64,000 bases of DNA from Gammaproteobacteria bacterium (GCA_965222535.1 OZ244957.1:1539550-1603549), one strand, 5' to 3'; shown: positions 239 through 53,348, counted from the first letter of the stretch. Translations and numbers: made by a program. Notes: a model not told the origin generated them from the letters alone.

Positions 239-960
<722 letters not shown>

Positions 961-1386
961 TGATTGACTGGGGCGCGGAGATTATATGCCAGACGCAAAA
1001 CTTGCATTTTAGGCAATCGAGCAGCAACAGACAACGCTAAAACCTGCCTAACGCAAGGGGGCCTCAACTCGCTTGTGAGCCAAAACTCCCCATAAATCAA
1101 AAAAATGCTACACTTAATGCTCCCACAACAAGTCGTCTACGGCGCTATGCGGCGCTTGCGGGTTAAAATAATATCCATAAATATCAATAGGTTATGAATT
1201 CGTTATCCGTCCTCATGAGCTCAAAAAAACTTAATTGGACCTATTGCGGGACTATTAAACTTGGTTCAACCCATCAGTATTGTTGTATACTAGATTGGTG
1301 TACGACCCGATCATTCAATTGCAACGGTTGGATGGTTATATCATGTTTAGATTCGCGTAGTTCTCAAAACCGTCAAGGTTGATATC

Positions 1387-1833
1387 ATGAGCGATTTACA
1401 AGAGACCGATACCGGCACCCCCCCTTATCTTGAGCACTCGAACGCTGAGTCCAAAGAACGACTCCCCGCTGAAGAACAAGGGGGCAGACTGAGTGATAGT
1501 GAGATTGAAACTCGGCTCAAACAAATCAATGAAGCCCGTTATCTTAAGCACTCAGACGATGAGTCCGAAGAACAAGAAGGCCAGTTGAGTCTTAGTGAAA
1601 TTGAAGCTCTGATCACAGAACAGGAACGGGAGCTCAAAATTCCAAACCGTTCCGATACCATTCGGAATGCTATCCTTAGTTTCAATATCTATCCTGAAAG
1701 GGATCCCTCAAGGTACTTCATAAAAGCCAACATTGCCCGTTCGTCCGCAGCCGCACTGGCATCGGATTGGAATAACGTATTTAAGGATTTGCACGTCTCT
1801 TTTTTGAGAGGCATCGCTAAGATTAAACGCTAG
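1387..1833 (+). CDS. hypothetical acidic protein with an internal duplicated motif
   Basis: 148-aa ORF in a low-GC block. It has an internal repeat: YLEHSNAESKE..GGRLSDSEIE and YLKHSDDESEEQEGQLSLSEIE. I recognise no family. Confidence 0.45.
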   Translation: MSDLQETDTGTPPYLEHSNAESKERLPAEEQGGRLSDSEIETRLKQINEARYLKHSDDESEEQEGQLSLSEIEALITEQERELKIPNRSDTIRNAILSFNIYPERDPSRYFIKANIARSSAAALASDWNNVFKDLHVSFLRGIAKIKR

Positions 1834-1872
1834 TTCGTTCGAACAAACAAAAGTCTCCCGGTAACCATTCTC

Positions 1873-2355
1873 ATGGTAGCTAAACGCAGGAAAACCAGAA
1901 ATAGTCGAACAAACAAAAAACACCCGGGGGCGTTAGCACAACCATTACCTGATGAGCGTAGCCCAGAAACCATCAAGAGCGAGCAGTATGGGGGTATTCT
2001 CGCAGTTAAATCTGAGGAGTTCTCCGGTCCCTTACCTCCTCCTGAGCTTCTCAAGCAATACGATGACATTGTCTCAGGTTTCGCTGATCGTATTATCTCA
2101 ATGGCCGAGAAAGAACAGAGCCATAGGCATCAATTAGGGCAATCAGCACTGAGCGGTGTAGTAGCTTCTGCGAAAAGGGGACAAATTCTCGCTTTTACAA
2201 TTTGTTCGCTGCTCCTATCATGCAGTGCTGGACTTATTGCATTGGACCATGACATAGCGGGTGCTATTCTCGGTGGCTCCACTCTCGTCGGATTAGCCTG
2301 CATCTTTATTACTGGACGTCGCAAAAAAAACAGCAACCCAACAAGCGACACCTGA
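1873..2355 (+). CDS. DUF2335-family membrane protein
   Basis: PPPELLKQYDDIVSGFADRIISMAEKEQSHRH is followed by two predicted TM helices (ILAFTICSLLLSCSAGLIAL and GGSTLVGLACIFITG). This is the typical DUF2335 layout. The gene starts 40 nt after the previous ORF. Confidence 0.65.
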   Translation: MVAKRRKTRNSRTNKKHPGALAQPLPDERSPETIKSEQYGGILAVKSEEFSGPLPPPELLKQYDDIVSGFADRIISMAEKEQSHRHQLGQSALSGVVASAKRGQILAFTICSLLLSCSAGLIALDHDIAGAILGGSTLVGLACIFITGRRKKNSNPTSDT

Positions 2356-2523
2356 TCGGATGTCAACGCAAAGCTAAAAGGTTCCCTTTTTTGTCGTAAC
2401 TACCTACCCCCAAGCGATAGGCATAGGGCAACCTAAGGACAGGTTGCTTGAATCCAACGTCAGGTTACGGCACTGACGATCGCTATTACGATACTGATAC
2501 CCGCTATTGCCCACGCTATCTTC

Positions 2524-2976
2524 TTATCGCGCCTTTCTACCCTTTCTCGCTCCTCCGCCTATCCTTTCTCGCTCCTCCATACGATCCGACATTTTCACTA
2601 TTTCGGGCAAGTAGGCATCCTTGAAAGCATTATAATGCTCGATCAATAAGGGGAAATCGCCATATATTTCATCGTATATCTTGTGGCGGTTTTCAGGGTT
2701 CCTACGGGAGTTTGCAACTTTGCTATTAAGGCGGGCGATATCTTTGATTAGATCGGGATATTTTGCTACCAACACTTGATACGCTGCATCCGGGTATTCT
2801 TGGCGAACTACATCCAGCTCTTGAGATAATTCCAATAAGACACCATCAAACAAGTCGTGATACGCACAATAAAGCGCATGTCTTATTCGTTGTATCAGCT
2901 CGGGATGACGGTCTTCCTCTTCACACGTGAGAAATTCCATGACTGCCCGAAGTGCATATCGAAATTCATTCAGCAC
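2524..2976 (-). CDS. hypothetical protein
   Basis: 150-aa ORF with a GTG start in the low-GC islet. I recognise no family. It may be the distal part of a frameshifted larger gene (see findings). Confidence 0.4.
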   Translation of the reverse strand: MLNEFRYALRAVMEFLTCEEEDRHPELIQRIRHALYCAYHDLFDGVLLELSQELDVVRQEYPDAAYQVLVAKYPDLIKDIARLNSKVANSRRNPENRHKIYDEIYGDFPLLIEHYNAFKDAYLPEIVKMSDRMEERERIGGGARKGRKAR

Positions 2977-3080
2977 TTCAGCCGGAAATTCTTTCTGGTG
3001 TGCTCATAGTCCTTACATCGGCCTGCAATCGGATTGTGCAACTGCGCCAGTTGTTGAATTTCCTTCTTTCGATCCATTGA

Positions 3081-3278
3081 TCAGATGCCAAAAAATTCTT
3101 TCAGCCTGACCATGCGCGCCGGTTGCTCTTCACGCATTTTTTGTATTTCTTCATCAGAGGTAACCATGCCCCTTTGAAGCAGAAGATTGCCTCTTGCCAA
3201 GCGCTGCATCCTCGATTCCGATATTTCGTCAAGGATGCGCTGTACCTTCTCCTCAACTGTATTATCTGCTTTTTTCAT
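3081..3278 (-). CDS. hypothetical small protein
   Basis: 65-aa ORF on the same strand as, and upstream of, 2524-2976. No family recognised. Confidence 0.3.
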   Translation of the reverse strand: MKKADNTVEEKVQRILDEISESRMQRLARGNLLLQRGMVTSDEEIQKMREEQPARMVRLKEFFGI

Positions 3279-4007
3279 GTGACTCTTCCAATAGCGTGGA
3301 CAATAATAAAATCAGAGGGGTATGAAAAACCACGAGGATTGCCCGCAAGGACTGAGGGGCAATTCTTTGGAGGGGCGTCAGACTGCATCCGATGTCGGAC
3401 GCAAGTCTGGCTGGGTAGCTTATAGCAAAGCTTAAAATCAAGGTTAGCCCCATTCTCTTCCGCCCCAAAGGCGGGGGCACTGGGCTTGTTGCAGCAGCGC
3501 CGTTCGGCTCCAAAACCGTGTCAAGCTTCGCCTGCCCTCACTCCTGTGGAATGGCTTTCTCCGAATGGGGGGAGGGCAGCGTAGAGAGCTTTTGCATATT
3601 CCTTACTACCAGCCGTATCTTTTATGGCTAGCTTCCGTAAAGTATATTTACAATATCAAGAATCAGCAATAACTTCTGATACTTTCACAAACAATCCATT
3701 TGTTTCTGTTTATGGCGTTATGAGGGCCGATAACAAATCCATAACTTATTGGTATTTATGAGTATTATTCTTACCTGTGAGTGTCGCATATCGCCGCAAA
3801 CGGCTTATTGCGAGACCATCAATGTTGAATTGACCGACACGATTTTGCGCGAAGCCGTGAAGCTGTATCAGGAGTTGATCTTCCCAACCCTACACAGCAG
3901 TGATGCCTAGGGTTGCCAATACAGTGCCGAGAACGTCGCAACGCCAACCGGATTCAAACACATTTACAACACCCTGCGGGAGGGGGCTGGCGCCTGTCGG
4001 GCCGACC

Positions 4008-4064
4008 TTCAACAGCCGGACAAACTCAAGCCAGCTGCAGCTCCTGAAAGCGGCGTTGCGGTGC
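4008..4064 (-). pseudogene. degenerate copy of the 3' end of rsmA
   Basis: About 47 of 57 nt match 4899-4954, the true rsmA 3' end. The minus strand reads APQRRFQELQLA then a stop caused by a 1-nt insertion, against APQRRPQDLQLAEFVRL in RsmA. Confidence 0.6.
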
Positions 4065-6176: not shown

Positions 6177-6734
6177 ATGGCAAGAGGCATCAACAAGGCA
6201 ATCCTGATCGGTAATCTTGGTGCCGATCCAGAAACCCGCTATACCGCCAATGGCAGTGTGATCACCAATATCCGTATCGCCACAACCGATCAATGGCGCG
6301 ATCGTCAAAGCGGCGAGTTGCAGGAACGCACTGAATGGCATCGGGTGGTGTTTTTCGGTCGCCTCGCTGAAGTCGCCGCGGAGCACATGCGCAAAGGATC
6401 GCAATGCTACATTGAAGGCAGGATCCAGACGCGCAAATGGCAAACGCAGGATGGGCAGGATCGCTACAGCACTGAGATCATCGCCAGTGAGTTTCAATTC
6501 CTCGGCGGGCGCCCGTCCTCTGGCTGGCCCCCTGCAACCGACCACGGCGCGGGGGCGGCCCACGGCATGCCTCAGGAGGAGGTGGAGGGGGGGCTTGCGC
6601 CGGCGCCGCCTGAGCAAGCATCAAGCAATCCCCCAGCGGAACCACACCAGAGGCAAAGCCAGCCCCCAAGCCAACCCCAACCCCGAGCAGCGACCGGCGC
6701 CCCCCCCTTTGACGATGATGATATTCCGTTCTAA
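6177..6734 (+). CDS. ssb: single-stranded DNA-binding protein
   Basis: [25 protein letters not shown]-fold N-terminus, a Gly/Pro/Gln-rich linker, and the C-terminal DDDIPF tip. An RBS (GGGAGAAG) lies upstream. Confidence 0.97.
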
Positions 6735-6815: not shown

Positions 6816-9602
6816 TCAGGATTGAGGCTCTTTGCTGACCGAAACGCAGTTATTGATTCCCAGATCTTCGATGATCTGTATGAGTTCGCTCTGGAAGGCG
6901 TTGGCGATCGCCGCGTCAACGCTGACGCTGAGAGTGATGGCCGCCTTCAGGCCGTCGCCGGAACGCAATTTCGGGATTAGCTTGCTACCCATGCGGTTCC
7001 ACATTTCCGGCGGCACCTTGCCCGCAATGCAGATAGTGTGGCGCGCCCCAGCAATTTCTGGTGCGCCCTGCGCGGCGGGTTGCGGGGCGTCTGCTACGCC
7101 GCCCCCCTGAGGGTGCACGGTCGCCGCCGCTGCCGCCGCCACTTTGAGCGGCGTGGCGGGCATCGTCAGTGCGGCGGCTGTTTCCTTGCGCAACAGGAAC
7201 ACCCCGGCCTCGAACGTTACCTCGTCGGGGTCGATCGCTTCCTTGAACCAGATGCGTTGGTAGGTAGCGTCTGGCTGTTCCCCAGAGGCGAGGCCAAACT
7301 CGCCCTTTTCCACGCATTCGACGATCTTATTTTTGAGGGTGTGGTCGGGATCGAACAGCCGTGTCAGGGTGCCGTTGAGGAAGCTCTGGCGCAGGCCCGA
7401 GAGCGGCCAAGCACCCGTCGCTATAAGCGCGGGCGGCCAGTTGCGCTCCACATAGCCTGCGCCGACGGATTCGCTGAGCAGCGCCTGCGATTTGAGTGCC
7501 GTGGTGATGCGTCCGCACAGGCTCTCGCTGCTGCTGGCGTGCCCCACGCCAAGGTCATAGTGCGCGATCCCGTCCGTTTGATCCTTATCAGCCAGCACCA
7601 CATAGCGGTAGTCGCCCCAGATCTGGTCGCGGGCGACATCCTTGGCCTCGGCCGTCTTGTGCTTCAGGTCGGTTCGATCAAAATCGCTGCCCAAGGTGCC
7701 GGCGGCGACCTCTTGGGTGACGCGCTGCCAAGCCAGCCAGCGCGCTACCTTCTCTTGCAGCGTGCGCCCCGGTTCCTTGAGCGTGAACACCAACGCGCCC
7801 GGATAGAGGCGCGGTGCGGTGCCGCGGTGCTGCGTCCATTTGGCGATCTCCTTGCGCACCGCGGCATCATCGCCACTGGCGTTTTCTGGCTCGCTTACCA
7901 CCAAGGTCAGCCGCGGTAGGTCGGTGATGGCGCTGCTGTCGGTGGGAAAGAAGACACGCGGGATATTCGCCCCCGCATTGAACTCCCCCTCGATCAGATC
8001 GCGCAGGGCGGGTTTGATCTCGCTGTCTTCATCGAGTGCCGCGCGGCGATCGTTGACCACCTTTTGCAATGTCGGCGTGTGACCTATCTTGAAGCCATCG
8101 CTACCGACTTTGCGCAGGTAATAGGCGCGGCCTTCTAGGGTCAGGGCCGCATTGTCCACCGAGGTGGTATCAACCCCGGGCTCACCGAGGGCAAAGCGCA
8201 ACTCCATCCGGTGGGCGACCTTGTTCACCTGACCGCCAGAGGACTCGAACAAGATGGTAGTGCCGACGCGGCGGTGGATATCGCGCAGCGCCCCGGTGGC
8301 GTCCGCATCGAGGGCGCGTGCGTGGGCTTGCTCGCCGGCGATGTCGGAGTGGATAGCGGCAGATAGGCGCTCCTCGCCGACCTGCCCCAAGACCGTGCTG
8401 AGGAATTGCGGATCGTCGAGCGGTGCTGAGCCGAGGGTAATCAACGGCTCGTCGCGTGCCTTGGAAAAAGCGTCCCGGTAGGCACCGGAGAGCCACTGCG
8501 CCAGCATCGCCAGCGTGCCTCGCGTCTGTTGGAACTGCGCCAGCGCCTGCCATTTGCGCTGAAACACCGACAGCGTGGCGGGATGGAAGGGGTAGCAGGC
8601 GGCAAAGCGTTGGCGCAGGCGGGTACGCGCTTGGGTCTCGGTATTGGCGCTGTCCACCGCCGTCCACTCGGGCGGCAACTGCGCGCGGCGCTCGAAGCAC
8701 CAGTCGGCGTAAGCCTTGGCGACCTTGGTGCGCGTCCGCTCGTCGCCCAGCGTATCAAACAGGCGGCGGCGCACCACCTCGCTGATTTCGGCCTCGTCGT
8801 TGGCGATCAAATCCTTGGCAACGCGGCGCACCACTTTGGTAATCCGCTCCTGCCACAGTAAGTCGAAGTCGGTCATCTCAACTTCGCTGCGCGGCAGGCT
8901 GATCACCGCCGCGCTATGGGTGGTGGCTGTCATGGCGATGGTCAGGTTCTGGATGAAGGCATGAAACGGCTCGGCCAAGGTACGGTGGCGGTTGATGAAG
9001 TTCAACACTTCGTCAAACAGGACCAGCACCGGCGCGTCCGCGGCGGCGAAAATGCGCCCGAGCGCGGCGGTGCCGGGCGGCGCCTGCCTGGCATCCTTGC
9101 CCAGTGCGGCAACGCCGGCATCCCCGGCGATCTGCCGCGCTAAGTCGATCCACGGCATCTCGTGCCCGGCCTGCGGATCCCAAGCGCTGCCGACAAACAC
9201 CGCCACCTTGGCGTGGGGTGCTTTGCCGATCCGTGCCCGCTGGAGCAGCTCTGCCACCCCATCCAGCTTAGCGACGTCCGTACCCGCGGTGGCGATATGA
9301 TACAGCGTCGCCAAGGTGTGCGTTTTGCCGCCGCCGAACTGGGTCATCAGCGCCGTTACTGGCGGGGCGTTGAGCGTCTGCCCAGCCAAACGCCGCAGCA
9401 CCATGCCGGTGTGTTCGCGCAGCGCCCGCGTAAAGCAGGTGCGGGCGAAGAACTGCCGCGGGTCGAGGTAGTCGGCGGGTGCGTTGCCCGCCACCACTTG
9501 TTCAAGGTCGATGGCGAACGCGGCGGGGTCGAAAGAGCGCCCCTCGCGCACCTCCGCACGCGGGATGGCAGCGTGGTACCAAGGGGTTAGTTTGGACGGC
9601 AT
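6816..9602 (-). CDS. DUF499-type (BrxC/PglY-like) AAA+ ATPase, last gene of the defence operon
   Basis: 928 aa. N-terminal LTPWYHAAIPRAEVREGRSFDPAAFAIDLEQVV and Walker A TQFGGGKTHTLATLYH are DUF499 hallmarks. GGAG lies 7 nt upstream of ATG 9602. Confidence 0.85.
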   Translation of the reverse strand: MPSKLTPWYHAAIPRAEVREGRSFDPAAFAIDLEQVVAGNAPADYLDPRQFFARTCFTRALREHTGMVLRRLAGQTLNAPPVTALMTQFGGGKTHTLATLYHIATAGTDVAKLDGVAELLQRARIGKAPHAKVAVFVGSAWDPQAGHEMPWIDLARQIAGDAGVAALGKDARQAPPGTAALGRIFAAADAPVLVLFDEVLNFINRHRTLAEPFHAFIQNLTIAMTATTHSAAVISLPRSEVEMTDFDLLWQERITKVVRRVAKDLIANDEAEISEVVRRRLFDTLGDERTRTKVAKAYADWCFERRAQLPPEWTAVDSANTETQARTRLRQRFAACYPFHPATLSVFQRKWQALAQFQQTRGTLAMLAQWLSGAYRDAFSKARDEPLITLGSAPLDDPQFLSTVLGQVGEERLSAAIHSDIAGEQAHARALDADATGALRDIHRRVGTTILFESSGGQVNKVAHRMELRFALGEPGVDTTSVDNAALTLEGRAYYLRKVGSDGFKIGHTPTLQKVVNDRRAALDEDSEIKPALRDLIEGEFNAGANIPRVFFPTDSSAITDLPRLTLVVSEPENASGDDAAVRKEIAKWTQHRGTAPRLYPGALVFTLKEPGRTLQEKVARWLAWQRVTQEVAAGTLGSDFDRTDLKHKTAEAKDVARDQIWGDYRYVVLADKDQTDGIAHYDLGVGHASSSESLCGRITTALKSQALLSESVGAGYVERNWPPALIATGAWPLSGLRQSFLNGTLTRLFDPDHTLKNKIVECVEKGEFGLASGEQPDATYQRIWFKEAIDPDEVTFEAGVFLLRKETAAALTMPATPLKVAAAAAATVHPQGGGVADAPQPAAQGAPEIAGARHTICIAGKVPPEMWNRMGSKLIPKLRSGDGLKAAITLSVSVDAAIANAFQSELIQIIEDLGINNCVSVSKEPQS

Positions 9603-9618
9603 CGTGGTTCTCCTTAAG

Positions 9619-9712
9619 GGGCTTGTCTATTGGGGGAAGGGTTATAAGTCAATAGCTTACGTTACAGGTGATCATGCCCCTTTTCCCAAACCCGCAGTTT
9701 TTCGAGGGGCCT
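9619..9712. repeat. family-A MITE-like element (short form) inside the defence operon
   Basis: ggggcttgtctattgggggaagggttataagtcaa...gccccttttcccaaacccgcagtttttcgagggg. It fills the whole gap between the stop at 9713 and the ATPase start at 9602. Confidence 0.85.
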
Positions 9713-10654
9713 TTAGGGGCAACGCACTTTAGCGAAAAAATCCAGTGCCGGTTTTTTCAATCGGGCGAGGTTAGCATAAGCCACCGGCGCAAAATCCTGC
9801 TGCTGATCGCAGACGTGGTAGCGCAGCCCGTCGGTAACGATGAAGTCGCAGCCGACACCCAGACGGGTTACGTAATCCTGTGCTTGCTGTTTTGCACCTT
9901 CAAGGCCACTGCCAAAGCGTTTGGCTTCGAGCACGAAACGGCAGTGCGCCGAAGTACGCGGCAGCGTGCCAAACAGCGCGACGTCAATGTGGTGCCATTC
10001 CACGGCGATCCGCTCGGGCGGCCAGCCGAGGGCACGCAACAAGGGCACGACCAAATGGGTGACAATCTCGCTCTCGTTGGGTGCCTCGCCAAAACACGCC
10101 GGATCAGCGTAGAGTGCGGCGAGGTCGCACGCCAAACCGACCACCTCACGGAGTGCCTTGGGTGCCTCGTCAAGCGCCTCTTGGACGGGCGGCAAAGCCG
10201 GCAGCGGTGCCGTCTGCCAGTGGGTGAAGCCGGAGGCCAGGTAGGTCTTGGCATAGTTTGCTACCGCCCTATTTTGCACCAGCGAGCAGGGGTTGGTGCC
10301 AAATACGGGGCTGTCAAAGCGGTACGGCTCGGGCAGGCGAAACCAGCGTACGCGGCGGGCATGGCGCAGATCCAAACCGTCCACGTCATCAAACGCCTCA
10401 AGGCATTGGTAGCCGCCGGCAACCAGCCCGATTGCCTCCACCGTGTCATTGGCGGTACGCAGCAGCACTAGGTCGCCTTCACGCAGCGCCGCGGCAAAAC
10501 GCCGCACGGGATCCGCTGATGGGCCACTATCGCGCTGATCCGGACGGCCTTTGCCAATCAGTGCCACGCCGTACTTCAGGAAAACCTCGGCATAACGGCG
10601 GCGCTGCATTCCGCCGCAGATCTGCCACACCGCTGGGGGGCGTCCAGCGTTCAT
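9713..10654 (-). CDS. PD-(D/E)xK nuclease-fold protein (HsdR_N-like C-terminal domain) with an unassigned N-terminal domain
   Basis: The C-terminal half, SEIVTHLVVPLLRALGWPPERIAVEW..IDVALFG....FVLEAKRFG..LEGAKQQAQDYV, fits the type I R-subunit N-terminal / Mrr-like D...ExK pattern. ATG 10654 has GAGG 6 nt upstream and lies 13 nt after the methylase stop. Confidence 0.6.
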   Translation of the reverse strand: MNAGRPPAVWQICGGMQRRRYAEVFLKYGVALIGKGRPDQRDSGPSADPVRRFAAALREGDLVLLRTANDTVEAIGLVAGGYQCLEAFDDVDGLDLRHARRVRWFRLPEPYRFDSPVFGTNPCSLVQNRAVANYAKTYLASGFTHWQTAPLPALPPVQEALDEAPKALREVVGLACDLAALYADPACFGEAPNESEIVTHLVVPLLRALGWPPERIAVEWHHIDVALFGTLPRTSAHCRFVLEAKRFGSGLEGAKQQAQDYVTRLGVGCDFIVTDGLRYHVCDQQQDFAPVAYANLARLKKPALDFFAKVRCP

Positions 10655-11155
10655 CGGTACCTCGCGCTCATCGCGGCAGCACCAGCAGCAGCGCATCGAG
10701 CAGGCGCCTTTCCTCGCAGCCCTTGGGGTAGAGTGCCGAGAGGGCGTTGGCGAGGCGCAGGAACCCCCCGCCGCGATCCTGCTCGGCTTTCAGCAGGGCG
10801 CGCAAGGCGTGGGCGTGCCCGGCACGCTGCAACAACATCGCCGTATGCACGCGATCCAGCGTGGTGACGCTGCTCTGTACCGCGGCAGCGGCGTCAATCG
10901 CTGCCTTCTTTGCGGTGGGGCGGGTGCGCTTTGCGGCGGCGGCGCCCCTGTCGAGGGATAGCTCGCCCTGCGTGCTGCTCTCTAGCCGCGCGGCAGTGGC
11001 GCTGGCACCCGCTTTGCCGAACAGTTGTTCGGCACGCTTAGCCACCGGCAGCAGGTGCACCACGCCTTTGTCAAGTTTGATGATACGCTGGCTCGCAAGA
11101 TCGATCCCCATCGGCTGGGCGATGCGGCGGACGATGTCAAACGGCAGGCTGAAGC

Positions 11156-11250
11156 TCTTGCCGTTACCGTTGCTCTTGCCGTTGCCGTTACCGTTACCAT
11201 TGCCGTTGCCGTTGCCTTTGCCCTTGCCGTTACCGTTGCCGTTGCCGTTG
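11156..11250. repeat. in-frame (GCCGTT)n-type microsatellite encoding an Asn-Gly/Lys-Gly tract
   Basis: The plus strand is cttgccgttaccgttgctcttgccgttgccgttaccgtt... On the minus strand it encodes NGNGNGNGKGKGNGNGNGNGNGNGKSNGNGKS inside the methyltransferase. Confidence 0.9.
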
Positions 11251-13191
11251 GCGGGCGTGCTGCTCCGCAGCGTCCACAGGAACAACGCCGTCAGGCGTGC
11301 GTCCGCTTCTAGGGCGTCGGTGGTCGCCGCGTCGCTGCCGAGCACCCGCTCCAGGGCCGCACGGCTCACCACTTCCCAGACTTTTTCGAGGTATTCGGGC
11401 AAGCCGACCGCGTGGCCGGCGGCAGTCTCGACTGCGGCGTAGCGGCTAAACACCTCCAGTGCCGGGCCGATGCAGGCAAACACTAGGTCAGCACCATGAA
11501 TCCCCTCGCCCTGCAAGCGTTCAAACCACGCCGCGACACGCTGCTGCAACCCGCGCAGCACCGCTGCCCATTCGCCGATCGATGCCTCCTTGGGGCGCGG
11601 GCGGCAGATCAGATGGATACTGGTGGCAAGCGCCGCGGAGTCGCGTGCCCGCAGGCGCGATGCCATCTCGGTGGCAATTGGCCAAGAGGCGGTGATCGTC
11701 CAGCCGCCGCGGATCAGGCCAGACAGCAATGCCTCCCAGCCGGCGGTGGTCTTGTGGGCGAACACCACCGTACCGATGCCGTCCTCGCGCAGGATGCGGC
11801 GTCCTTCGGCAAAGGCTGCCGCCATGCCGCCTTCAAAGAATTGTTGGTCTTTTTCTGGGTAGCGCACCGCGTCCCAGTGCCTCATCTCGCACAGTTCTAA
11901 CCTTTTGGGGGTTAGTTGGTTGTCGGGGTCAAAGGGGTCACGTAACAGTGGATGGTTGGGCAGCGCACGCTTCAGCCAGACGAAAAAGAAATCCGAAAGA
12001 TCTGCGTAGGGAATGGCAAAGTAGTAGGGCGGGTCGGTGAACCACACCCCGGCGCTGTGGTCAGGCAGTGGATGCTCGGTGGCATCCGCGGATTGGACTT
12101 GGGCAGGTTTTTGCAATGGCTGATTGACCACCTGCGTAAGCCACTCAGTCTGCGTCTGAAAATCACCAGTAGAGCCACCAATGGGGTTAGACTCAGCAAA
12201 ATCCCATACGATTGGTAACGCTTGACGACCAAATGTGTCCATAAGTGACTCTCCAGAGGTCTTCCACCGGCAACCAGTGCTGTTCTGCATGGAAACCTTA
12301 TCCACGCAAAACGCCATTGTTGTCCGTACCACATCGCCGTCCTCACTGGACCACTTCCGCACCAACCTCACCAACGCCACCAACGCTACCTTCTGGCGGG
12401 CGGTGAACAGGTCGCCCCAAGTATTCATTCCATAAAGCGGTACGTTGAAGACCCCACTCATCAACGGCAAGGGCTCATCCGGTATCGGGCACAGCCCCTG
12501 CCGACCGCCCTGCTGCCACTCCGCTAGGATCGTCGCTGCCCGCTGCTGGGCGTGGTACACCGCGGCGTAGTCAGCAGCATTCGGCAGGCGGTAATGGCGT
12601 CCGCTCTGGCCGGGGCGCAGGGTTACCACCGCCGTCAGGCGCGCCCCGCCGCTGCGCTTGCCTTGCGCATCAAACACCGCATCGGCCCCGCCGCGTTGCG
12701 CCGCCAGTTGTGCCCGCACCCGCGGCGGCGGCAGCACCGTGCTGCAACACAGGCAGCGCGCCTTGGCACGTTCCACCGTGCCGCCGGCGACCGCGCTGTC
12801 GCTCACGGGGGCAAAGATCTCAAACGCGACCTGCGGCGGTGCACCTTCGGGGCGCACGACAGTGGTACGCAGCGCCCACTTGCGCTGGGGCTTCTTGCAC
12901 AGCCACAGCGAGCGCAGCAGCGGCATCTCGGCACCGCAGTGGGGCGCTTCACAGCGCACCGTACGCGCCCACAGGTAGGCAATCGGCGTGGCACCGAAAG
13001 GGTCGCTTGGGTACAGGTCGGCGAGCTCTTTTTCAGCCGCCGCCTTGATTGCCGCACCGGCGGTACGCAACTCGTGCGCCAGCCCCGCCCCGTGACGCGG
13101 GATGTCCGAAAGCATCACCTTCAGGATCAGCAGGGCGACCGGGTTCAGGTCGCTGGCAAATGCCTCGCAGCCGAGGCGCAACGCCTCCAGC

Positions 13192-13237
13192 GGGATCGAT
13201 CCGCCGCCGGCGAAGGGATCGATCCGCCGCCGGCGAA
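13192..13237. repeat. perfect 23-bp tandem duplication (2 copies)
   Basis: gggatcgatccgccgccggcgaa at 13192-13214 is repeated exactly at 13215-13237. It is followed by gggatcga (13238-13245), an 8-nt microhomology. Confidence 0.97.
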
Positions 13238-13659
13238 GGGATCGACCACCAGCGGCGACTCCTCGGGATGGGCGGCGCGTACCAGGGTGCGGGCGGCGGC
13301 GAGATAGGCGGGATTGGCAGCGTTGTCCCAGTTGGCACAGTCGGCAATGAAGTCCAGCAGGATCTGCCGTAGCCCCTCATCCGACTCGACTTTCTGCGTC
13401 CACCCCGCGGGGCGACCGTGCAGTGCCAGCAAAGCGGCGCGTGCGGCGGGCTTGAACGCCGGCGGGCAGTGCGTATCGCACGGGTCGGGCAGCAGCAGTG
13501 CCAGCAGCACCGCGCGCGATGAAGCCAGCGGGCGCCGTGCCCACCACAGATGCAGCGTCGAGGGATGCCCGTGGCGGATCGATTTTTCGCGTGCCGCGTG
13601 TTTCGATACCGCCGCAATCGGAAAATCGACCTCGGCGAGGCGCTTGCATTCCTTAGGGA

Positions 13660-16600
13660 TCATGGCGGCTCTCCATAGGGCGTCTCGCCCTCGTTGACCT
13701 GCATCGGTTGGGTCATGGCATCTACGTTTAGATAGTAGTGCTGCACCTTGCTGACCTCGTGCCAAGGATGCTTGGCGGGATCAAAGATCGGCTCTTGCAG
13801 CCGCGGTGTGGTGGCGCAGTGGGTAACAATGTAGAGCCAGTAGCAGTCGCGCCGATCCTCGGCCACGCGGCGCTCGTTGGGCGTTAGCAAGATGGTGCCG
13901 CTGGGTGCCGAGAGCCCTTTGACCTCGATCAGGCGCATCTCGCCCGAGCGCGTATCGAGGCTGGTGAGATCGTAGCCAACATTGCGGGCGCTGACATCCG
14001 TAACGCTACAGCCGCGGGCGCGCTCGTACCCTATCACCCGCTCCATGGCGAGGCGCTCGACGCTCAGATCCTGCCGCAGTTGGGTGATCTCGCGCGATAA
14101 ACGCTCAGGGTGAGGCAGTACCAGCACGCTGGTCAGGCGCTCAACCGCCTGCAACGACAGCGCCCGCTGGCGTTGCAACGCCAAGCGCCGCTGCGCACGC
14201 CGGGCGGTCAGATCGGCGTGCCGTTTCTCGGCTTTGGCAAGCCGCCCCTCGGCACCCTGTTTGTTGTCCTCAATATCGCCGACAGCACGCCCAATCTCGT
14301 CATCGGCGCGCGTAAGCAGCGCGGTCAGCGATAGCTCGACATGCTGTTCAATGCGCGCAACCTCGCTGTTGCGCTCGGCGCGCGTGGCCGTAAGAAAGGC
14401 CAGCAAGGCGTGCTGGTACAGCCAATCGAAGGGCTCTGGATCATCGGCAACGGCAGGCCGCTCGCACGGTGCCGCGGCGGGGCTGAAGTTCCCCAGCGCA
14501 CTTGGCTCGCGCAGTTGTGGCTCGGCACCGTGGCGTAGCTCGACGGCGAAAAGATTCTCGTGCACGACCTGGCCTAAGCCGTCCACCACCCGCGCGCGGA
14601 AAAAATCAATGCGTGCGGGCGCGGCGTGGGAGAGGGAGTAGAAACAAGCACCGTGACCGAAGGCTTCCGTGGCTTGAGCGCGTACATGGCGGCGGATCGA
14701 CTCGAACAGCGGGTGACCGGGCGTTACCCATTCAAGGTTGTGTTGCTCGGCGGTTTGCCGATCGGTGGAACAGCGCGGGTAGCGATCGGCGAGCCGCGGC
14801 AGCTTCCAATCCGGGGCGCGCTCGTAGCGCCGCAGCACCGCGGGGGTACGCGTCGGCTCGAAGGTATGCGGGCGATCGCCAACGACCTTAAGCGCGATGC
14901 CAGCGAAGCGTGCCGCCTCGCGCAAAAAACGCGCGATGCTCTCGGGCACCAAGCGGCGCTCTTGGGCACGTGCGCGGCGCTCAATAAGCATCGCCAAGTT
15001 GAGTTTTTTGGCAGCCAGCCCCTCTAAGGCATTGTGGCAGATGTTGCGAAAGCGGTGCTCGTCAACATCCCTTAGCAGGCGCTCCTCAAGGTCCGCATCG
15101 CCCAACTGACCGGCGTAATAATCGCGCAGCACGCGCTCGACATGCGCCGCAGGCAGCACCTCGCCGATCACGTTGAAGACCGCGTCATCGTCAAGCGCAT
15201 CGCGGATCTCTTGCAGCTTGTCGAACAGCCGTTCCAGTACCCGCCCCTCAATGGTGTTGGTGGCAACAAAGTTGAAGATCAGGCAATCCTTGAGCTGCCC
15301 ATAGCGGTGGATGCGCCCCATGCGCTGCTCAAGACGGTTGGGGTTCCACGGGATATCGTAGTTGAAGAGGATGTTGCAGCATTGCAGGTTGATGCCCTCG
15401 CCAGCCGCCTCGGTGGCCACCAGCACCTGGATCTGGGCTTCACGGAACTGCTGCTCAGTGTGGATGCGGGTGCCCTCCTGATCGCGCGATCCGGGTTTCA
15501 TCCCACCGTGGATGACCCCTACGCGAAACCCCCAGTGGTTAAGATTCTCGACCAAGTAATCAAGGGTGTCTTTGAACTCGGTGAAGATCAGCAGGCGGCG
15601 CTCGCGGTCGCCAAAAAAGCCTTCGTTTTTTAGCAGCGCTTTGAGTTTTGCCAGCTTCGCCTCGGCGTGACAACGCTCGACACCCACGGCTGCTTGGGTC
15701 AGCTCGCGCAGTTCATTGATCTCCTCATGCACCAGATCGGCGCTGTCAGCGAGGGTGATGGCTTCAAGCAGCCGCTCCAAGCGCTCACGCTCGCCTTCCT
15801 CCATCTCCTCCATCTCCTCTAAGTCGGGGATCTCTGGCGGAGCCCTCTTGGCGAGGCCCTGCGCTTCTTTGAGACCGTGCGCAAGACGCCCGGCGCGATT
15901 CTCAAGGCTGCGCCGCATGGCGCGGGTGCTGGAAGCCAAGCGCCGCTGGTAGAGCGCCATCAGGAAGCCCACGGCGCGCGCCCGCCGATCGTTACCGCGC
16001 GCCGCTGCGCGGGCGCTCTGGCGCTTTACAAAGCGCGTGATGTCGCGGTACAGATCAAGCTCCGCGGCGTCAATCAAAAACCCGACAGTGCGCGGAATGC
16101 GGCGCGTGAAGATCTTGCGTGCGACAAAGGTCCCGGCGGCGGTGCGCTCGGGAAAGTCGATCATCGCCTCCTTGGTGCGGCGCAGGTAAAACGGCGCACG
16201 CTGGTGCTTCATCGCCTCTTTGATCGACGAAACGTCAGCGTAGGCGTCGCGGTCGAGTAACTGCAAGAAGAGGGTGAAGTTGAGCGGATCGCCTTTGTGC
16301 GGCGTGGCGGTCAGCAGCAGGCAGTGATCGGAGGTATCGCGCAGTAGCTCGCCGAGCTTGTAGCGCTGGCTCTTGTGGCTCTCGTCGCGCGCTGACATGC
16401 GGTGCGCTTCGTCGATGATCACCAAGTCCCAGTGCACCTGCTTGAGCCCCGGCAGGATGTCGTGGCGCTTGGCGAGGTCGAGCGAGGTGATCACCTTGTT
16501 CTGCTCAAGCCACTGGTTGACGCCGAACTGGTCGCGCAGGTCGCTGCCCTTGAGCACCAAGAAGGGCTCGTCGAACTTCTCCTTGAGCTCGCGCTGCCAC

Positions 16601-17079
16601 TGGAAAGCCAAGTTAGCCGGAACGACAATCAGGATGCGTTCGGCAAGGCCGCGCAGTTGCAGCTCGCGCAGCAACAGCCCGGCCATGATGGTCTTGCCAG
16701 CGCCAGCATCGTCAGCCAACAGGAAACGCACGCGGGCGAGCTTCAGCAAGTGCTCATAGACTGCCTCAAGCTGGTGCGGCAGCGGGTCAACACGCGAGAT
16801 CGAAAGGCCGAAATAGGGATCGAACTCCCAAGCAATAGCGAGCGCCTGAGCCTGCAAGCCGAGCCGCAGCAAGGCACCGTCGGCACCGTAATCAAAGGCC
16901 GCCTCTTGGATGGTAAGCGACTTTAGCTCCTCCGCCGACAGGTTGACCTTGCGAAAACGCTCGCTCTGGACGCCGACCAAGCCAACGCTCCAAGTGCCGC
17001 TGGGGGACAAGCGCACTGTCTCAACCCGCATCGGCTCACTGAACAGGTCGCCGGTCAGGATTTGGCCGGTGCTGATCAC
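13660..17079 (-). CDS. SNF2-family helicase fused to a C-terminal DUF3883 (PD-(D/E)xK-like) domain, first gene of the defence operon
   Basis: 1139 aa. Helicase motifs LLADDAGAGKT, VIIDEAHRM, LLLTATPHKG and QRMGRIHRYGQ. C-terminal GYDLTSLDTRSGEMRLIEVKG...LTPNERRVAEDRRDCYWLYIV matches DUF3883. Its stop overlaps the methylase ATG as ATGA at 13660-13663. Confidence 0.9.
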   Translation of the reverse strand: MISTGQILTGDLFSEPMRVETVRLSPSGTWSVGLVGVQSERFRKVNLSAEELKSLTIQEAAFDYGADGALLRLGLQAQALAIAWEFDPYFGLSISRVDPLPHQLEAVYEHLLKLARVRFLLADDAGAGKTIMAGLLLRELQLRGLAERILIVVPANLAFQWQRELKEKFDEPFLVLKGSDLRDQFGVNQWLEQNKVITSLDLAKRHDILPGLKQVHWDLVIIDEAHRMSARDESHKSQRYKLGELLRDTSDHCLLLTATPHKGDPLNFTLFLQLLDRDAYADVSSIKEAMKHQRAPFYLRRTKEAMIDFPERTAAGTFVARKIFTRRIPRTVGFLIDAAELDLYRDITRFVKRQSARAAARGNDRRARAVGFLMALYQRRLASSTRAMRRSLENRAGRLAHGLKEAQGLAKRAPPEIPDLEEMEEMEEGERERLERLLEAITLADSADLVHEEINELRELTQAAVGVERCHAEAKLAKLKALLKNEGFFGDRERRLLIFTEFKDTLDYLVENLNHWGFRVGVIHGGMKPGSRDQEGTRIHTEQQFREAQIQVLVATEAAGEGINLQCCNILFNYDIPWNPNRLEQRMGRIHRYGQLKDCLIFNFVATNTIEGRVLERLFDKLQEIRDALDDDAVFNVIGEVLPAAHVERVLRDYYAGQLGDADLEERLLRDVDEHRFRNICHNALEGLAAKKLNLAMLIERRARAQERRLVPESIARFLREAARFAGIALKVVGDRPHTFEPTRTPAVLRRYERAPDWKLPRLADRYPRCSTDRQTAEQHNLEWVTPGHPLFESIRRHVRAQATEAFGHGACFYSLSHAAPARIDFFRARVVDGLGQVVHENLFAVELRHGAEPQLREPSALGNFSPAAAPCERPAVADDPEPFDWLYQHALLAFLTATRAERNSEVARIEQHVELSLTALLTRADDEIGRAVGDIEDNKQGAEGRLAKAEKRHADLTARRAQRRLALQRQRALSLQAVERLTSVLVLPHPERLSREITQLRQDLSVERLAMERVIGYERARGCSVTDVSARNVGYDLTSLDTRSGEMRLIEVKGLSAPSGTILLTPNERRVAEDRRDCYWLYIVTHCATTPRLQEPIFDPAKHPWHEVSKVQHYYLNVDAMTQPMQVNEGETPYGEPP

Positions 17080-17129: not shown

Positions 17130-17660
17130 GCGGTGGCATAGCGGCTGCGGTTGACGCTCTGGCATAGTGGTAGGCGGGGGCTCTGGAAGGGCCGCTCTGA
17201 AAAATCACTCCCCCTTGAGGGGGAGTCGGCAAATCAAGGGCAAAGCCCACAGATTAGCCGGTGGGGGGCTTTGGGCGCAAGGCTCTGGGATCTTTGATAT
17301 TTTTAATCCTGATATATCAGGAGAATAAGGAGGGTAACGACGTTTGTATTGGGCCTGCTATTGGCAATGCGCCGATGTATCGGAGAAGAAGAACCCTCCA
17401 GCGGTAATTTCATGGTGCCGCTGAGCGGTCTATGCCGGTCAGCGAACGATGCACCGTTAGGCGCTCCTTATTAAAAAATTAAAAAACACAGGCGTGTTTA
17501 GCACCCCTAAACACGGTACTCCCTTCCCCCAAGCCCCTAACCCCAGGATCTCCTGTGCCCTTGCCTCGACGCCGTGCAGAGCCGAGGAAGGGTGAACGCT
17601 CTGGCATTGTGGCGGGCAGTGCTCTGGAAGGGCCGCTGGACTTTCGCCGTTAGGCGCACC
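17130..17660. repeat. stack of family-B composite repeats upstream of the defence operon
   Basis: Repeated GCTCTGG(C/A/G)A subunits. The block 17382-17558 is about 95% identical to 27284-27460. The block 17540-17640 matches 32310-32380 and 53130-53190. There is a perfect hairpin, actcccccttgagggggagt, near 17208. Confidence 0.8.
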
Positions 17661-17741: not shown

Positions 17742-18536
17742 TTATGTTTTATTTTTCGCATTGGTAGGAATTGAAATAGATGAGTTAAACTCTACAAGAT
17801 TCTTCCAATCAATTGCTCCATTGCTATCAAAAAACATGTTTCCAAATTCCAATGTGAACATATTGATTCGATTTGAATATGCATTAATAAAGTCATCATT
17901 TCTTTCTTTAGCTTTGTGACCTAGCGGTTCTATTATATTGGTATAAAGACTCTTGTTGCCTGATATGAATTCCCAAAAATTTTGACCGCAGTATTTGTAA
18001 TAATCTCCTTTATCTGATTTGTTATCACGACCATAACAACATCCATTCACACATACGATATTCAATTTTGAATTACTAGTTCTTAATATACGCTGTGCTG
18101 TTTTAAAGTCAGATTTCATCTTGGATATTTGACTGCTATTTCCCCAATTAGGCCCAGATTTTATATTCACAATATATCTTATATTATCGTAGTCAAATTC
18201 TAAGTCTATTCCTTGTATGCCTGATTTCCATCCTCCATAAATTTTGTTATTTATGAATATTGCAAGCCCCTCTAACCAGTCGCCAAATATTGTCTCTTCA
18301 TTAGATGAAATATGCGCATCAACAAGCCCCTTAACTATTTCTTCAGATGTCAAAACATGCTTTGCTCTAAATAAATATGGATTTTTTCTTTTGAGGACTT
18401 TGCTAAGACTCAGAGTATCAAGGTTTGATATTCTTTTCTCATGAAAAATTCCGATGGTGTCTTCAACGTACTTGATTACATCATTCAGATCGATTGGTTT
18501 CATATTTAACCTTTGGTTCAAGTAAGAATAGCTCAA
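17742..18536 (-). CDS. putative type II restriction endonuclease (family not confidently assigned)
   Basis: Low-GC ORF lying immediately downstream of, and overlapping, a DNA methyltransferase gene. ATG 18503 (MKPIDL) is an alternative start. KRKNPYLFRAK and IDLEFD...IVNIKSGPNW resemble small type II REases I recall from the Eco47II/TdeIII/PmeII-like groups. Confidence 0.55.
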   Translation of the reverse strand: MSYSYLNQRLNMKPIDLNDVIKYVEDTIGIFHEKRISNLDTLSLSKVLKRKNPYLFRAKHVLTSEEIVKGLVDAHISSNEETIFGDWLEGLAIFINNKIYGGWKSGIQGIDLEFDYDNIRYIVNIKSGPNWGNSSQISKMKSDFKTAQRILRTSNSKLNIVCVNGCCYGRDNKSDKGDYYKYCGQNFWEFISGNKSLYTNIIEPLGHKAKERNDDFINAYSNRINMFTLEFGNMFFDSNGAIDWKNLVEFNSSISIPTNAKNKT

Positions 18537-19395
18537 CAGATGGAATTTGAGCTTTCACCATTTTATAATATTCTGGGACTACTTCTATCCCAATCGAATT
18601 TCTATGCATTTTATTTGCAACAATATTGGTTGTTCCAGAACCCATGAAAGGGTCTAACACCGTGTCGCCAACTTTAGTAAATAACTTTATAAACCATTCT
18701 GGTAAACTTTCAGGAAATGCAGCACTATGATTTTTATTGTTACACTCTGTAGATAAATGAAGAACATTTGTTGGGTATGCTTTATCTCTTGTTAGCCAGT
18801 TAGATATATTTTTTCCGAAACCACTTCCAACCTTAGACTCATCCCTTATTTTATCTGTTTCACTAAGATTTTTTAATCTTGTTTTTGCCCAGTCTCCCAT
18901 AGGCACCATGACCGCTTCTTGATACATGTTAAAATTTTTATTTTTATTAAATTGTAGTAACCGCTCCCAGGCATCCCTGAACCTATTTGGCCACTTACCG
19001 GGGTAACAGTTTTTTTTGTGCCAGATAAATTCTTCCGTCCACAACCATCCTTGCTTTTTCATGGCAAGGATTAGTTCCATTATATATGTACTCCTTTCGC
19101 CACTTACCACTTTCTCTTTGATATTGAGAACAAAGGTTCCTTTTGGTTTAAGAACCCTCAACATCTGTTCCGTCTTGGGTAAAAACCAGTCTACATAACC
19201 ATCGGGATGAATTCCTCCATATGTTTTTTTTCTCTGATCAGCATATGGTGGAGAGGTAAAAATAAAATCCACTGAATTATCAGATATTTCTCTTAGAATA
19301 TTCTGACAGTCTCCAAGGTACAAATCGTGTTTTATTTCCATTCTAATCTCTTCAAATCTGTATCTTTCTTGTGTTTCTATGGAACACTTACTCAT
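18481..19395 (-). CDS. beta-class N4-cytosine or N6-adenine DNA methyltransferase (SPPY type)
   Basis: Motif IV DFIFTSPPY precedes motif I DPFMGSGTT, which is the beta-class order. ATG 19395 is the IS256-derived start codon (MSK...). An internal ATG at 19341 (MEIKHDLYLGDC) may be the native start. Confidence 0.85.
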   Translation of the reverse strand: MSKCSIETQERYRFEEIRMEIKHDLYLGDCQNILREISDNSVDFIFTSPPYADQRKKTYGGIHPDGYVDWFLPKTEQMLRVLKPKGTFVLNIKEKVVSGERSTYIMELILAMKKQGWLWTEEFIWHKKNCYPGKWPNRFRDAWERLLQFNKNKNFNMYQEAVMVPMGDWAKTRLKNLSETDKIRDESKVGSGFGKNISNWLTRDKAYPTNVLHLSTECNNKNHSAAFPESLPEWFIKLFTKVGDTVLDPFMGSGTTNIVANKMHRNSIGIEVVPEYYKMVKAQIPSVELFLLEPKVKYETNRSE

Positions 19396-19497
19396 AGTGG
19401 CGACTCTTCTTATATTGATGGGGTGGTTTATAACTTCCAATCAATCAGAGTCGCCGCTCTTTTTCAATCCCTCATACACCACTTTCAGTTATAGCTC
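19387..19497. mobile_element. solo end of an IS256-family element (IR plus 5' leader and the first 3 transposase codons)
   Basis: About 90% identical to 47716-47827, the transposase-proximal end of the intact IS at 46441-47827. Homology stops after ATG AGT AAG. Confidence 0.85.
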
Positions 19498-27283: not shown

Positions 27284-27460
27284 GGAGAAGAAGAACCCTC
27301 CAGCGGTAATTTCATGGTGCCGCTGACCGGTCTATGCCGGTCAGCGAACGATGCGCCGTTAGGCGCTCCTTATTAAAAATTAAAAAACACAGGCGTGTTT
27401 AGCACCCCTAAACGCGGTACTCCCTTCCCCAAAACCCCTAACCCCAGCATCTCCTGCGCA
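27284..27460. repeat. family-B long module (about 95% identical to 17382-17558)
   Basis: ggagaagaagaaccctccagcggtaatttcatggtgccgctgaccggtctatgccggtcagcg...acacaggcgtgtttagcacccctaaacgcgg...ccccagcatctcctgcgca. It contains a perfect 10-bp-stem hairpin, cgctgaccgg/ccggtcagcg. Confidence 0.9.
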
Positions 27461-27575
27461 CGCTATCCTCGCCGCCTTGTTCAATCTCGTGCAGCATGGT
27501 TTGCACGACCTGGCGGGTATCGTCTTCGCCGGTGGTCGGGTTCTTAACGTTGGATTTAATAATCTGAATTGCCAT
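27438..27575 (-). pseudogene. N-terminal fragment of a HisD-family (histidinol / sulfopropanediol dehydrogenase-like) gene, truncated at a repeat
   Basis: The minus strand reads MAIQIIKSNVKNPTTGEDDTRQVVQTMLHEIEQGGEDSVR and then runs straight into the family-B repeat end. The V..ML.EI...G..(A/S)V pattern resembles HisD-family N-termini. Confidence 0.4.
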
Positions 27576-32282: not shown

Positions 32283-32465
32283 TTGTACTCCCTTCCCCAA
32301 AACCCCTAACCCCAGCATCTCCTGTGCTTTCGGCTCGACGCCGTGCAGGGCCGAGGGCAGGTGAAGGCTCTGGCATAGTGGAAGGCGGGGGCTCTGGCAT
32401 GGCTTCGGGCGGGGGCTCTGGGATTAGCGTACGGCGCGCCGCTAGGCGCTCCTGATTAAAAATAG
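32283..32465. repeat. family-B composite repeat copy
   Basis: tcccttccccaaaacccctaaccccagcatctcctgtgc...cgacgccgtgcagggccgagggc...ggctctggcat (x2)...ggctctgggatt...ccgctaggcgctcctgattaaaaat. Modules are shared with 17440-17640 and 27340-27460. Confidence 0.8.
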
Positions 32466-52653: not shown

Positions 52654-53348
52654 GGGTACCTCGAAAACCCTGAAATGGGATGGGGGCGGGGGGTGCTATA
52701 AACAATGCCATAAGCGTTTGATTAATATACCCTTCCCCCAAAGGACTTCGGGCAGTGCTCTGGAATCTGAACGTTATTTAATCCTGAAAACAAGCGGTGC
52801 TGGCTTTTGCAGGAGAATAAGGAGGGTAAAGCCGTTTATACTCATGTTACTTGAAGATGCTTGATGGGTGAGGGAGACCGTTTTGTGCACCTCGTTGAGT
52901 CGCGCTGCGTTTGACGCTCTGGAAAGGGCTTCGGGCAGTGCTCTTTGGGATGGCTTCGGGCGGTGTCTCTGGGATCTTTAATATTTTAATCCGCAAACAG
53001 CACAAGCTGCGCGTGGCAGTTGCGGAGAGATTTGCAGAAAAGAGGTTTATATTGGGGGAAGGGTGAAGGCGTGTTTAACGCACCTAAACGCGGTACCCCC
53101 TTCCCCTAAACCCCTACCCCCAGCATCTCCTGCGCCCTTGCCTCGACGCCGTGCATGACCGAGGGCTTCGGGCGGCGCTCTGGAAAAGGGCTGGGGGCGA
53201 GGCTTTGGGATGAGAGCATGACTTTAGCCCTTTCTTGCATCTTCAAGTAACGCCGGTATAAGCGTTTGATTAATATACCCTTCTCTCAATATAACACCCT
53301 ATTTTAGTGCCTCCGAAAGCTGGCAATAACCAATTTTTCGAGGTACCC
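52654..53348. repeat. stack of family-A and family-B repeats
   Basis: Family A arms at 52654-52743 and 53257-53348. Family B modules lie between them; 52960-53120 matches 4705-4855, 52745-52870 matches 59505-59620, and 53195-53256 matches 59775-59835. Confidence 0.85.

Follow-up and report, generated by a model that had tools for sequence, protein, structure and literature searches.

The DNA analysed here is a stretch of 64,000 nucleotides from a Gammaproteobacteria bacterium (GCA_965222535.1 OZ244957.1:1539550-1603549), referred to as the window, and all coordinates are positions within it. Between 6816 and 17079, on the minus strand, the window carries a locus that we identify as an Hma (helicase-methylase-ATPase) anti-phage operon of the Type-1 BREX-related kind (BREX, bacteriophage exclusion), with three core genes, of which the methylase gene is broken, and one embedded accessory gene. 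To this explanation as a whole, including the role proposed below for the embedded gene, we give a probability of about 0.7. The operon belongs to a described system and the extra nested gene is likewise a described phenomenon, so that the findings overturn nothing in current understanding. The details of modest interest are a clade of predicted reader-nucleases confined to Hma, a recent and potentially reversible knockout of the methylase, and a mosaic methylase allele.

Identity of the operon

Open reading frame (ORF) listing and translation place four co-directional genes in this segment. The helicase gene hmaA (13660-17079, minus strand; 1139 aa, GTG start) is followed by the methylase gene hmaB (10668-13663, minus strand), which is split into two ORFs in different frames and encodes 990 aa when one copy of a repeat is removed. 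Next come the embedded accessory gene, hereafter the DUF8426 gene (9713-10654, minus strand; 313 aa, ATG at 10654), and the ATPase gene hmaC (6816-9602, minus strand; 928 aa, ATG at 9602). The start of the DUF8426 gene was set at 10654 from its homologs and from the identical database entry P0001; the mechanical ORF list runs to 10696. The hmaA stop and the hmaB start share the ATGA at 13660-13663, and the TGA of hmaB is followed by GAGG and then by ATG 10654. The spacer between the DUF8426 gene and hmaC (9603-9712, minus strand), which ends in the ribosome-binding site AAGGAG, measures 110 nt, compared with usually 5-42 nt in relatives. An earlier reading of the same DNA, made from the sequence alone and called here the original prediction, had described the four co-directional genes, the ATGA overlap and the GAGG and GGAG junctions. 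All of these are seen, GGAG lying within the AAGGAG upstream of ATG 9602, and the motifs it quoted (DEAH, QRMGRIHRYGQ, DPFAGGGSIP, DPPYY, GGGKTH and D...ExK) are likewise all present.

The operon is of a known kind, as judged by near full-length matches of its core proteins to the PADLOC models for HmaA, HmaB and HmaC and by concordant Pfam domains. More specifically, the helicase protein matches the HmaA model PDLC00659 at 8.7e-172 over residues 48-1086 of 1139, the repaired methylase translation matches the HmaB model PDLC00661 at 6.2e-115, and the ATPase matches the HmaC model PDLC00662 at 7.7e-95 over residues 4-818 of 928. Pfam finds SNF2-rel_dom, Helicase_C and NOV_C (equivalent to DUF3883; 2.9e-19, residues 1007-1094) in HmaA, where DEAH stands at residue 223, QRMGRIHRYGQ at 585 and an intact GYDL...IEVKG at residues 1035-1055. 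Repaired HmaB matches DUF1156 (2.4e-22) and has both motif I, DPFAGGGS(IP), and motif IV, DPPY(Y). Since a DPPY motif marks the amino-methyltransferases (N6A/N4C), HmaB falls in this class. HmaC matches DUF499 (7.9e-12) and is an ORC/Cdc6-like AAA+ ATPase with a Walker A motif, GGGKTH, at residue 90, a Walker B motif, LFDEV, at residue 195, and no N-terminal HEPN domain. These profile hidden Markov model searches in Pfam and PADLOC bear out the DUF499, DUF1156 and DUF3883 assignments of the original prediction, as well as its statement that PADLOC has an Hma type. Against the 'anti-phage' equivalogs of NCBIfam for the PLD-helicase system (DUF1156 and DUF499), the operon's proteins score far below cut-off.

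Hma is widespread: it was defined as a candidate system in 26 phyla (Payne et al. 2021, PMC8565338), and Rakesh & Krishnan 2026 (PMC12839542), who renamed it the 'Type-1 BREX-related system' (Type-1 BR), count 2446 taxa. The supposed relationship to BREX holds. Its proposed basis, that DUF499 is the ATPase domain of BrxC, needs correction, as the best match of BrxC is DUF6079 and DUF499 forms a sister family (PMC12839542). The same authors describe the Type-1 BR helicase as carrying an N-terminal TUDOR domain and an inactive restriction endonuclease domain, and the DUF499 protein as carrying a C-terminal winged helix-turn-helix domain and an RRM. A further trait of Type-1 BR, an extra active-type PD-(D/E)xK nuclease at the C-terminus of the helicase, is present in HmaA with its motif intact. 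A HEPN domain is fused to the N-terminus of DUF499 in 1370 of the 2446 taxa (~56%; PMC12839542), and HmaC in the window differs from these in being without it.

The original prediction also suggested that a four-gene architecture might be an undescribed variant. Embedded genes are in fact the rule, since 62.7% of 1,485 Hma systems contain them, and several of the embedded genes have been validated as defences (Payne et al. 2024, bioRxiv 10.1101/2024.01.29.577857). Furthermore, Rakesh & Krishnan 2026 (PMC12839542) catalogued auxiliary nucleases of BREX-related systems, including PD-(D/E)xK enzymes with N-terminal sensor modules. In archaea, EVE proteins standing alone beside operons of this type had been reported earlier (Bell et al. 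2020, PMC7641849). The window thus shares with other Hma systems the one-strand arrangement of an SNF2 helicase fused to a NOV_C/PD-(D/E)xK nuclease, a DUF1156 methyltransferase and a DUF499 ATPase, and the embedded gene found in ~63% of them; it holds a single such gene, where the PADLOC gene-order rule allows up to three between neighbours. It differs in that hmaB is a pseudogene, a condition that Payne et al. 2024 exclude from their curated high-quality set, and in that the embedded gene is a DUF8426 gene, with no convincing match among the PADLOC v2 HEC and PDC models.

Two better-known systems resemble the operon in part. Type-3 BREX (BrxC, PglXI, BrxHII, PglZ) has a homologous ATPase, N6-methyltransferase and SNF2 helicase, and the PADLOC BrxHI/HII models match HmaA at 4e-105 while PglXI matches HmaB weakly. 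It differs in that the nuclease here is fused to the helicase and in that the operon is without PglZ, BrxA, BrxB and BrxL; models for these proteins match none of the four products, and the operon is flanked by ssb and by a Type II restriction-modification (R-M) pair. The SNF2 core of HmaA also resembles DrmD of DISARM (PADLOC 1e-122; NCBIfam NF038317, 352.8 bits), but the latter score is below the 610-bit cut-off and no DrmA, DrmB or DrmC is present.

The interrupted methylase gene

The frame of hmaB is broken by a 23-bp tandem duplication (13192-13214 and 13215-13237), consisting of two 100% identical copies of GGGATCGATCCGCCGCCGGCGAA directly after the DPFAGGGSIP codons. The duplication noted by the original prediction is therefore real. 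The repeat unit is bounded by an 8-nt microhomology (TCGATCCC, minus-strand reading), which is a signature of replication slippage, and a perfect 23-bp duplication bounded in this way makes a homopolymer-type sequencing error an unlikely source of the frameshift. Deletion of one copy in silico yields a continuous 990-aa frame, and over 837 codons the broken gene contains no further stop. Of 103 complete hmaB genes in relatives, 86 read through in a single frame.

An exact-sequence look-up of the window's DUF8426 protein returned no contig, and that of its cluster mate P0121 returned one. The metagenomic contig L164 has the same operon in the same ssb-ksgA context, with a single 23-nt copy and an intact hmaB of 985 aa. 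Identity to the window is at least 99% across hmaA, the DUF8426 gene and hmaC, and the DUF8426 and HmaC proteins have the same lengths in both. Because so close a relative has one copy and an intact gene, the lesion is recent. A block of ~1.2 kb within hmaB (~11550-12730, minus strand; HmaB residues ~390-625, including motif IV) has 55-86% identity to L164, as judged from sliding-window identity and from a protein alignment, both versions being in frame and Hma-like. This mosaic block looks like an allelic exchange and may set target specificity. A hexanucleotide array, (TTGCCG)x15.5 at 11158-11250 on the minus strand, encodes an (Asn-Gly)n linker in HmaB that is 10 aa longer in the window than in L164.

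With hmaB knocked out by the duplication, the modification arm is probably off in this genome. As the methylase is a pseudogene in this strain, the modification-dependent defence suggested by the original prediction is probably not at work here as a pairing of modification and restriction. In BREX, PglX is needed for target recognition; if HmaB were needed in the same way, a strain with intact hmaA and broken hmaB would also be expected to be viable. The viability of this strain agrees as well with the report of Liu et al. 2024 (PMC11232893) that HmaA on its own is tolerated in Escherichia coli. Until the duplication is lost, which for a perfect tandem duplication can happen by slippage or recombination, the system is probably inactive or impaired.

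We also considered whether the operon is decaying in this strain, with the frameshift in the methylase as the first step of its loss and with selection no longer acting on the other genes. The departures of the window's DUF8426 copy from near-invariant positions, described below, and the unusually long 110-nt spacer before hmaC would fit such decay, as does the frameshift itself. Against this, hmaA, hmaC and the DUF8426 gene are undamaged and of full length, with their catalytic motifs preserved, the broken hmaB has acquired no further stop, the duplication is reversible, and L164 combines an intact hmaB with the same DUF8426 and HmaC lengths. We consider decay very unlikely.

The window and L164 form a natural pair, at least 99% identical, with frameshifted and intact hmaB and with different central hmaB alleles. 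This pair could be used to address whether restriction, like modification, requires HmaB, and whether the mosaic block sets specificity.

The DUF8426 gene: predicted domains, inheritance and role

The 313-aa product of the embedded gene belongs to Pfam DUF8426 (PF28530) according to a precomputed match on the identical entry P0001 and on all listed homologs; the PF28530 model is not in the local Pfam copy, so that the family label is taken from this precomputed annotation. There are at least 720 homologs in a 90%-clustered collection, all labelled PF28530. A profile search of 1.84 billion representatives with DUF8426 returned 1039 clusters (50% identity), of which 238 reach E <= 1e-30; nearly all are 310-390 aa long. 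No paper found in a literature search on DUF8426 mentions the family. Scans of the 313-aa protein with local Pfam and NCBIfam models gave no match, the PADLOC v2 HEC and PDC models gave none that was convincing (best PDC-S02, 4e-4 over ~55 residues), and the homolog P0002 matches no model of the latter sets. A profile search of solved-structure sequences with DUF8426 returned nothing meaningful.

The C-terminal half of the family contains an invariant D224...E243-x-K245...Q257 block in the family alignment. Pfam HSDR_N matches 22 of 24 members weakly (best 1.1e-5), and a distant member, P0139, matches HSDR_N_2 at 37 bits, above the curated 25-bit cut-off. This half is thus assigned as an HsdR_N-type PD-(D/E)xK nuclease domain, an assignment that comes from family-level sequence profiles, the window protein having no match of its own in the local Pfam copy and the fold search of this half not being significant. 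An AlphaFold2 model of the 313-aa protein (predicted local distance difference test score, pLDDT, 80; predicted template modelling score 0.72) shows the N-terminal half as a β-barrel domain. Its best Foldseek neighbours in the Protein Data Bank are the EVE-HNH Type IV enzyme VcaM4I (4.5e-4), several EVE proteins, YTH readers of N6-methyladenine (m6A) and the YTH-like N-domain of Thermococcus gammatolerans McrB, all of them PUA-like readers of modified bases. For the EVE and YTH proteins the target-normalised template modelling scores are 0.55-0.63, at modest E-values and from a single predicted structure. We therefore regard the N-terminal half as a predicted EVE/YTH-like reader of PUA fold. 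The original prediction had recognised a C-terminal HsdR_N/Mrr-like D...ExK motif, which the family alignment and the HSDR_N matches support at family level; the window copy itself is below threshold, and the predicted N-terminal reader had been missed.

Modification-dependent (Type IV) restriction enzymes pair a reader with a nuclease, a layout that the large DUF8426 family is predicted to share. Type IV enzymes with PUA-like readers (VcaM4I, T. gammatolerans McrB, the MspJI type) would resemble DUF8426 proteins in their N-terminal EVE/YTH-like fold and C-terminal endonuclease domain with D...ExK, as far as profiles and the model can tell, and distant DUF8426 members also resemble them in being solitary genes. 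They differ from DUF8426, which has no EVE, YTH or SRA profile match, has a nuclease of HsdR_N type and not HNH, and includes a clade confined to Hma. A further parallel is offered by BrxU and GmrSD in BREX and by HEC-05 and HEC-06 in Hma (Payne et al. 2024), where a modification-dependent nuclease is nested, co-oriented, in a methylation-based system, as DUF8426 putatively is here. GmrSD-like genes even occupy the same slot, the hmaB-hmaC junction, in some relatives. GmrSD is nevertheless another protein family. Its genes are frequent outside host systems, whereas members of the close DUF8426 clade were seen only within Hma.

The window's copy and its 90%-identity cluster mate depart from the family at several positions: G-P-W is missing (residues 36-46), and Leu stands at position 94 where 90% of relatives have Trp. 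Residues 36-46 and 94 are also low-confidence regions of the model. The reader pocket of this copy may be altered.

We sampled the surroundings of the gene in two directions. In a forward sample of 80 genome loci found via the DUF8426 protein, drawn from many bacterial phyla and archaea, the order hmaB, DUF8426, hmaC on one strand was present at every locus with enough flank, and variable inserts lay mostly between hmaA and hmaB. A converse sample comprised 80 metagenome loci found via HmaC (60-67% identical to the window's HmaC), 73 of them testable. Only 22 of these 73 carry the DUF8426 gene, 18 with a gap of 5-42 nt to hmaC; in the others hmaB abuts hmaC or other cargo sits there. The conservation expected of the gene at 9713-10654 in other genomes was thus found for the close clade, which accompanies Hma in 80 loci, and not for the system at large, nor for the distant DUF8426 proteins (336-375 aa), which are solitary genes in unrelated or mobile-element-rich surroundings outside Hma loci.

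Two readings were discarded on these data. The view of DUF8426 as a clade-defining core component of an Hma lineage was rejected by the converse sample (22/73). Exclusivity of the family to Hma was rejected by the solitary distant members, and was kept only for the clade of at least 45% identity.

DUF8426 is scattered across the HmaC clustering with a degree of phylogenetic signal, and plasmid-borne Hma systems with HmaC at most 34% identical are without the gene. The pairwise distances of DUF8426 are correlated with the HmaC distances (r = 0.72, Mantel p = 0.001) and the HmaA distances (r = 0.79), compared with r = 0.94 between HmaA and HmaC. In L107, L118 and L148 the DUF8426 gene is gone and its last ~25 codons remain just before hmaC, footprints of internal deletion or replacement. 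One DUF8426 clade is thus settled at the hmaB-hmaC junction, largely co-inherited with Hma and yet dispensable.

Some further observations concern cargo in relatives. L118 additionally retains the first ~27 residues of DUF8426. The hmaB-hmaC junction is a cargo hotspot (L089, L092, L132, L157, L110, L118, L145, L148, L134), holding HEC-01-like ABC-ATPase pairs with their partner, PDC-M24A/B pairs, GmrSD/HEC-06-like genes and several proteins of 123-177 aa. An extra copy of the first ~41 hmaB codons (the DUF1156 N-terminus) stands 1-3.5 kb upstream of the full gene in L019, L039, L050, L101 and L160, bracketing cargo; the duplicated start may be a signature of cargo exchange between hmaA and hmaB.

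Taken together, the profiles, the structural model and the genomic context best fit a reading of DUF8426 as a Type IV-like nuclease that Hma has captured as an accessory; as distant members are solitary, the module can probably act alone. Under this reading, HmaB, as a DUF1156 amino-methyltransferase, would mark host DNA as self, HmaC, the DUF499 ORC/Cdc6-like ATPase, would serve as sensor and scaffold, and HmaA, an SNF2 translocase joined to a PD-(D/E)xK nuclease, would be the effector that translocates along and cuts unmarked DNA. DUF8426 would probably read modified bases and cut, adding a second line of defence against phages that evade the methylation-based core through their modified DNA, in parallel to BrxU and GmrSD embedded in BREX. 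The original prediction knew of no mechanistic study, but a partial one exists (Liu et al. 2024, PMC11232893) and the family has been dissected by Rakesh & Krishnan 2026 (PMC12839542). According to the former, Halomonas HmaA alone guards E. coli against T4, a protection that needs the helicase domain and the nuclease domain's nickase activity, and T4 grown on an HmaB-overexpressing host was affected no differently.

Several points weigh against this reading. EVE, ASCH and YTH sequence profiles give no match to DUF8426, and the reader fold depends on the one model with its modest E-values. A separate AlphaFold2 model of the C-terminal half alone was poor (pLDDT 61), and its Foldseek search was not significant, with the resolvases Hjc and RecU at E ~1-2. 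The window copy is below the HSDR_N threshold and is without two near-invariant tryptophans and a GPW segment of the family alignment, so that this particular protein may be altered or weakened. The function of DUF8426 is itself putative, being read from profiles and a predicted structure. Finally, the close clade is strictly resident in Hma and always abuts hmaC, which fits a dependent subunit equally well.

Such a subunit would be an integral fourth component of Hma, its YTH/EVE-like domain reading the m6A mark of HmaB for self-recognition and acting through HmaC to license or execute cleavage, as a positional equivalent of the HEPN domain fused to DUF499. The close clade occurs only inside Hma (80/80 loci), immediately upstream of hmaC and in most loci 5-42 nt away from it, and has diverged along with HmaC and HmaA. 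Its structural neighbours include m6A-reading YTH domains, and HmaB has the DPPY motif of an amino-methyltransferase. There are precedents in the HEPN domains at the DUF499 N-terminus in 1370 taxa and in the ASCH/PUA and RAMA reader modules fused to DUF3780 in Type-2 BR (Rakesh & Krishnan 2026, PMC12839542). However, ~70% of equally close Hma operons do without DUF8426, some with hmaB directly abutting hmaC, the presence of the gene is patchy, and distant members of the family are solitary. Moreover, no DUF8426-DUF499 fusion was found among the best 150 of the 1039 family clusters, and the invariance of the catalytic triad speaks for an active nuclease and not a pure reader. We consider an integral subunit unlikely. 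Quite unlikely, too, is a bolder version in which the Hma-resident DUF8426 is a dedicated mark reader-nuclease that reads the HmaB mark or its absence, acts via HmaC and fills the HEPN slot; together with the mosaic hmaB and the reversible frameshift, this would make a four-component system whose specificity is swapped and whose activity is switched through the methylase alone. Whichever role it has, the Hma-only clade offers a definite case in which to ask whether embedded genes are independent of their host system or depend on it.

Genomic surroundings

The region reads, in order, tRNA-Arg (884-960), ksgA, ssb (6177-6734), the Hma operon, a Type II R-M pair, a DsrC/TusE-like gene, a GHMP kinase gene and gyrA. 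The R-M cassette (17742-19440) encodes an EcoO109I-like endonuclease (17742-18536, minus strand; Pfam RE_EcoO109I, 1.9e-92) and an N6/N4 methyltransferase (18481-19440, minus strand; Pfam N6_N4_Mtase, 7.4e-44). It looks complete and, at 38% G+C, is clearly foreign to a chromosome of ~55% G+C, which confirms the placement of the locus between ssb and a second, foreign R-M cassette. As listed, with each start taken as the first after a stop, the two ORFs overlap by 56 nt. The Hma operon has 62-65% G+C, compared with ~47-59% in the flanks. With one system high and the other low in G+C, the two form a small defence islet of foreign composition.

A terminator-like hairpin (17207-17226, minus strand; ACTCCCCC-TCAA-GGGGGAGT followed by a T-run), found by a consensus scan only, lies 128 nt upstream of hmaA and sets the operon apart from the R-M cassette, which is upstream of it on that strand. 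The island is not flanked by att-like direct repeats of at least 11 nt, and the scan of flanking genes showed no integrase. An Rfam scan of the window returned nothing but one tRNA; the tRNA-Arg gene, the only tRNA gene of the window, lies ~6 kb past the operon's hmaC end, with ksgA and ssb between.

A dispersed intergenic repeat of ~200 nt occurs at 17382-17576, 27284-27479, 32285-32403 and 53067-53164, its first two copies being 92% identical. It ends in a hairpin and a T-run and has no Rfam match, and the L164 contig breaks exactly inside it. From tRNA-Arg to ksgA, the window (960-4050) and L164 (13455-14769) differ; this segment next to the tRNA is strain-variable and includes a DUF2335 membrane protein gene at 1873-2355.

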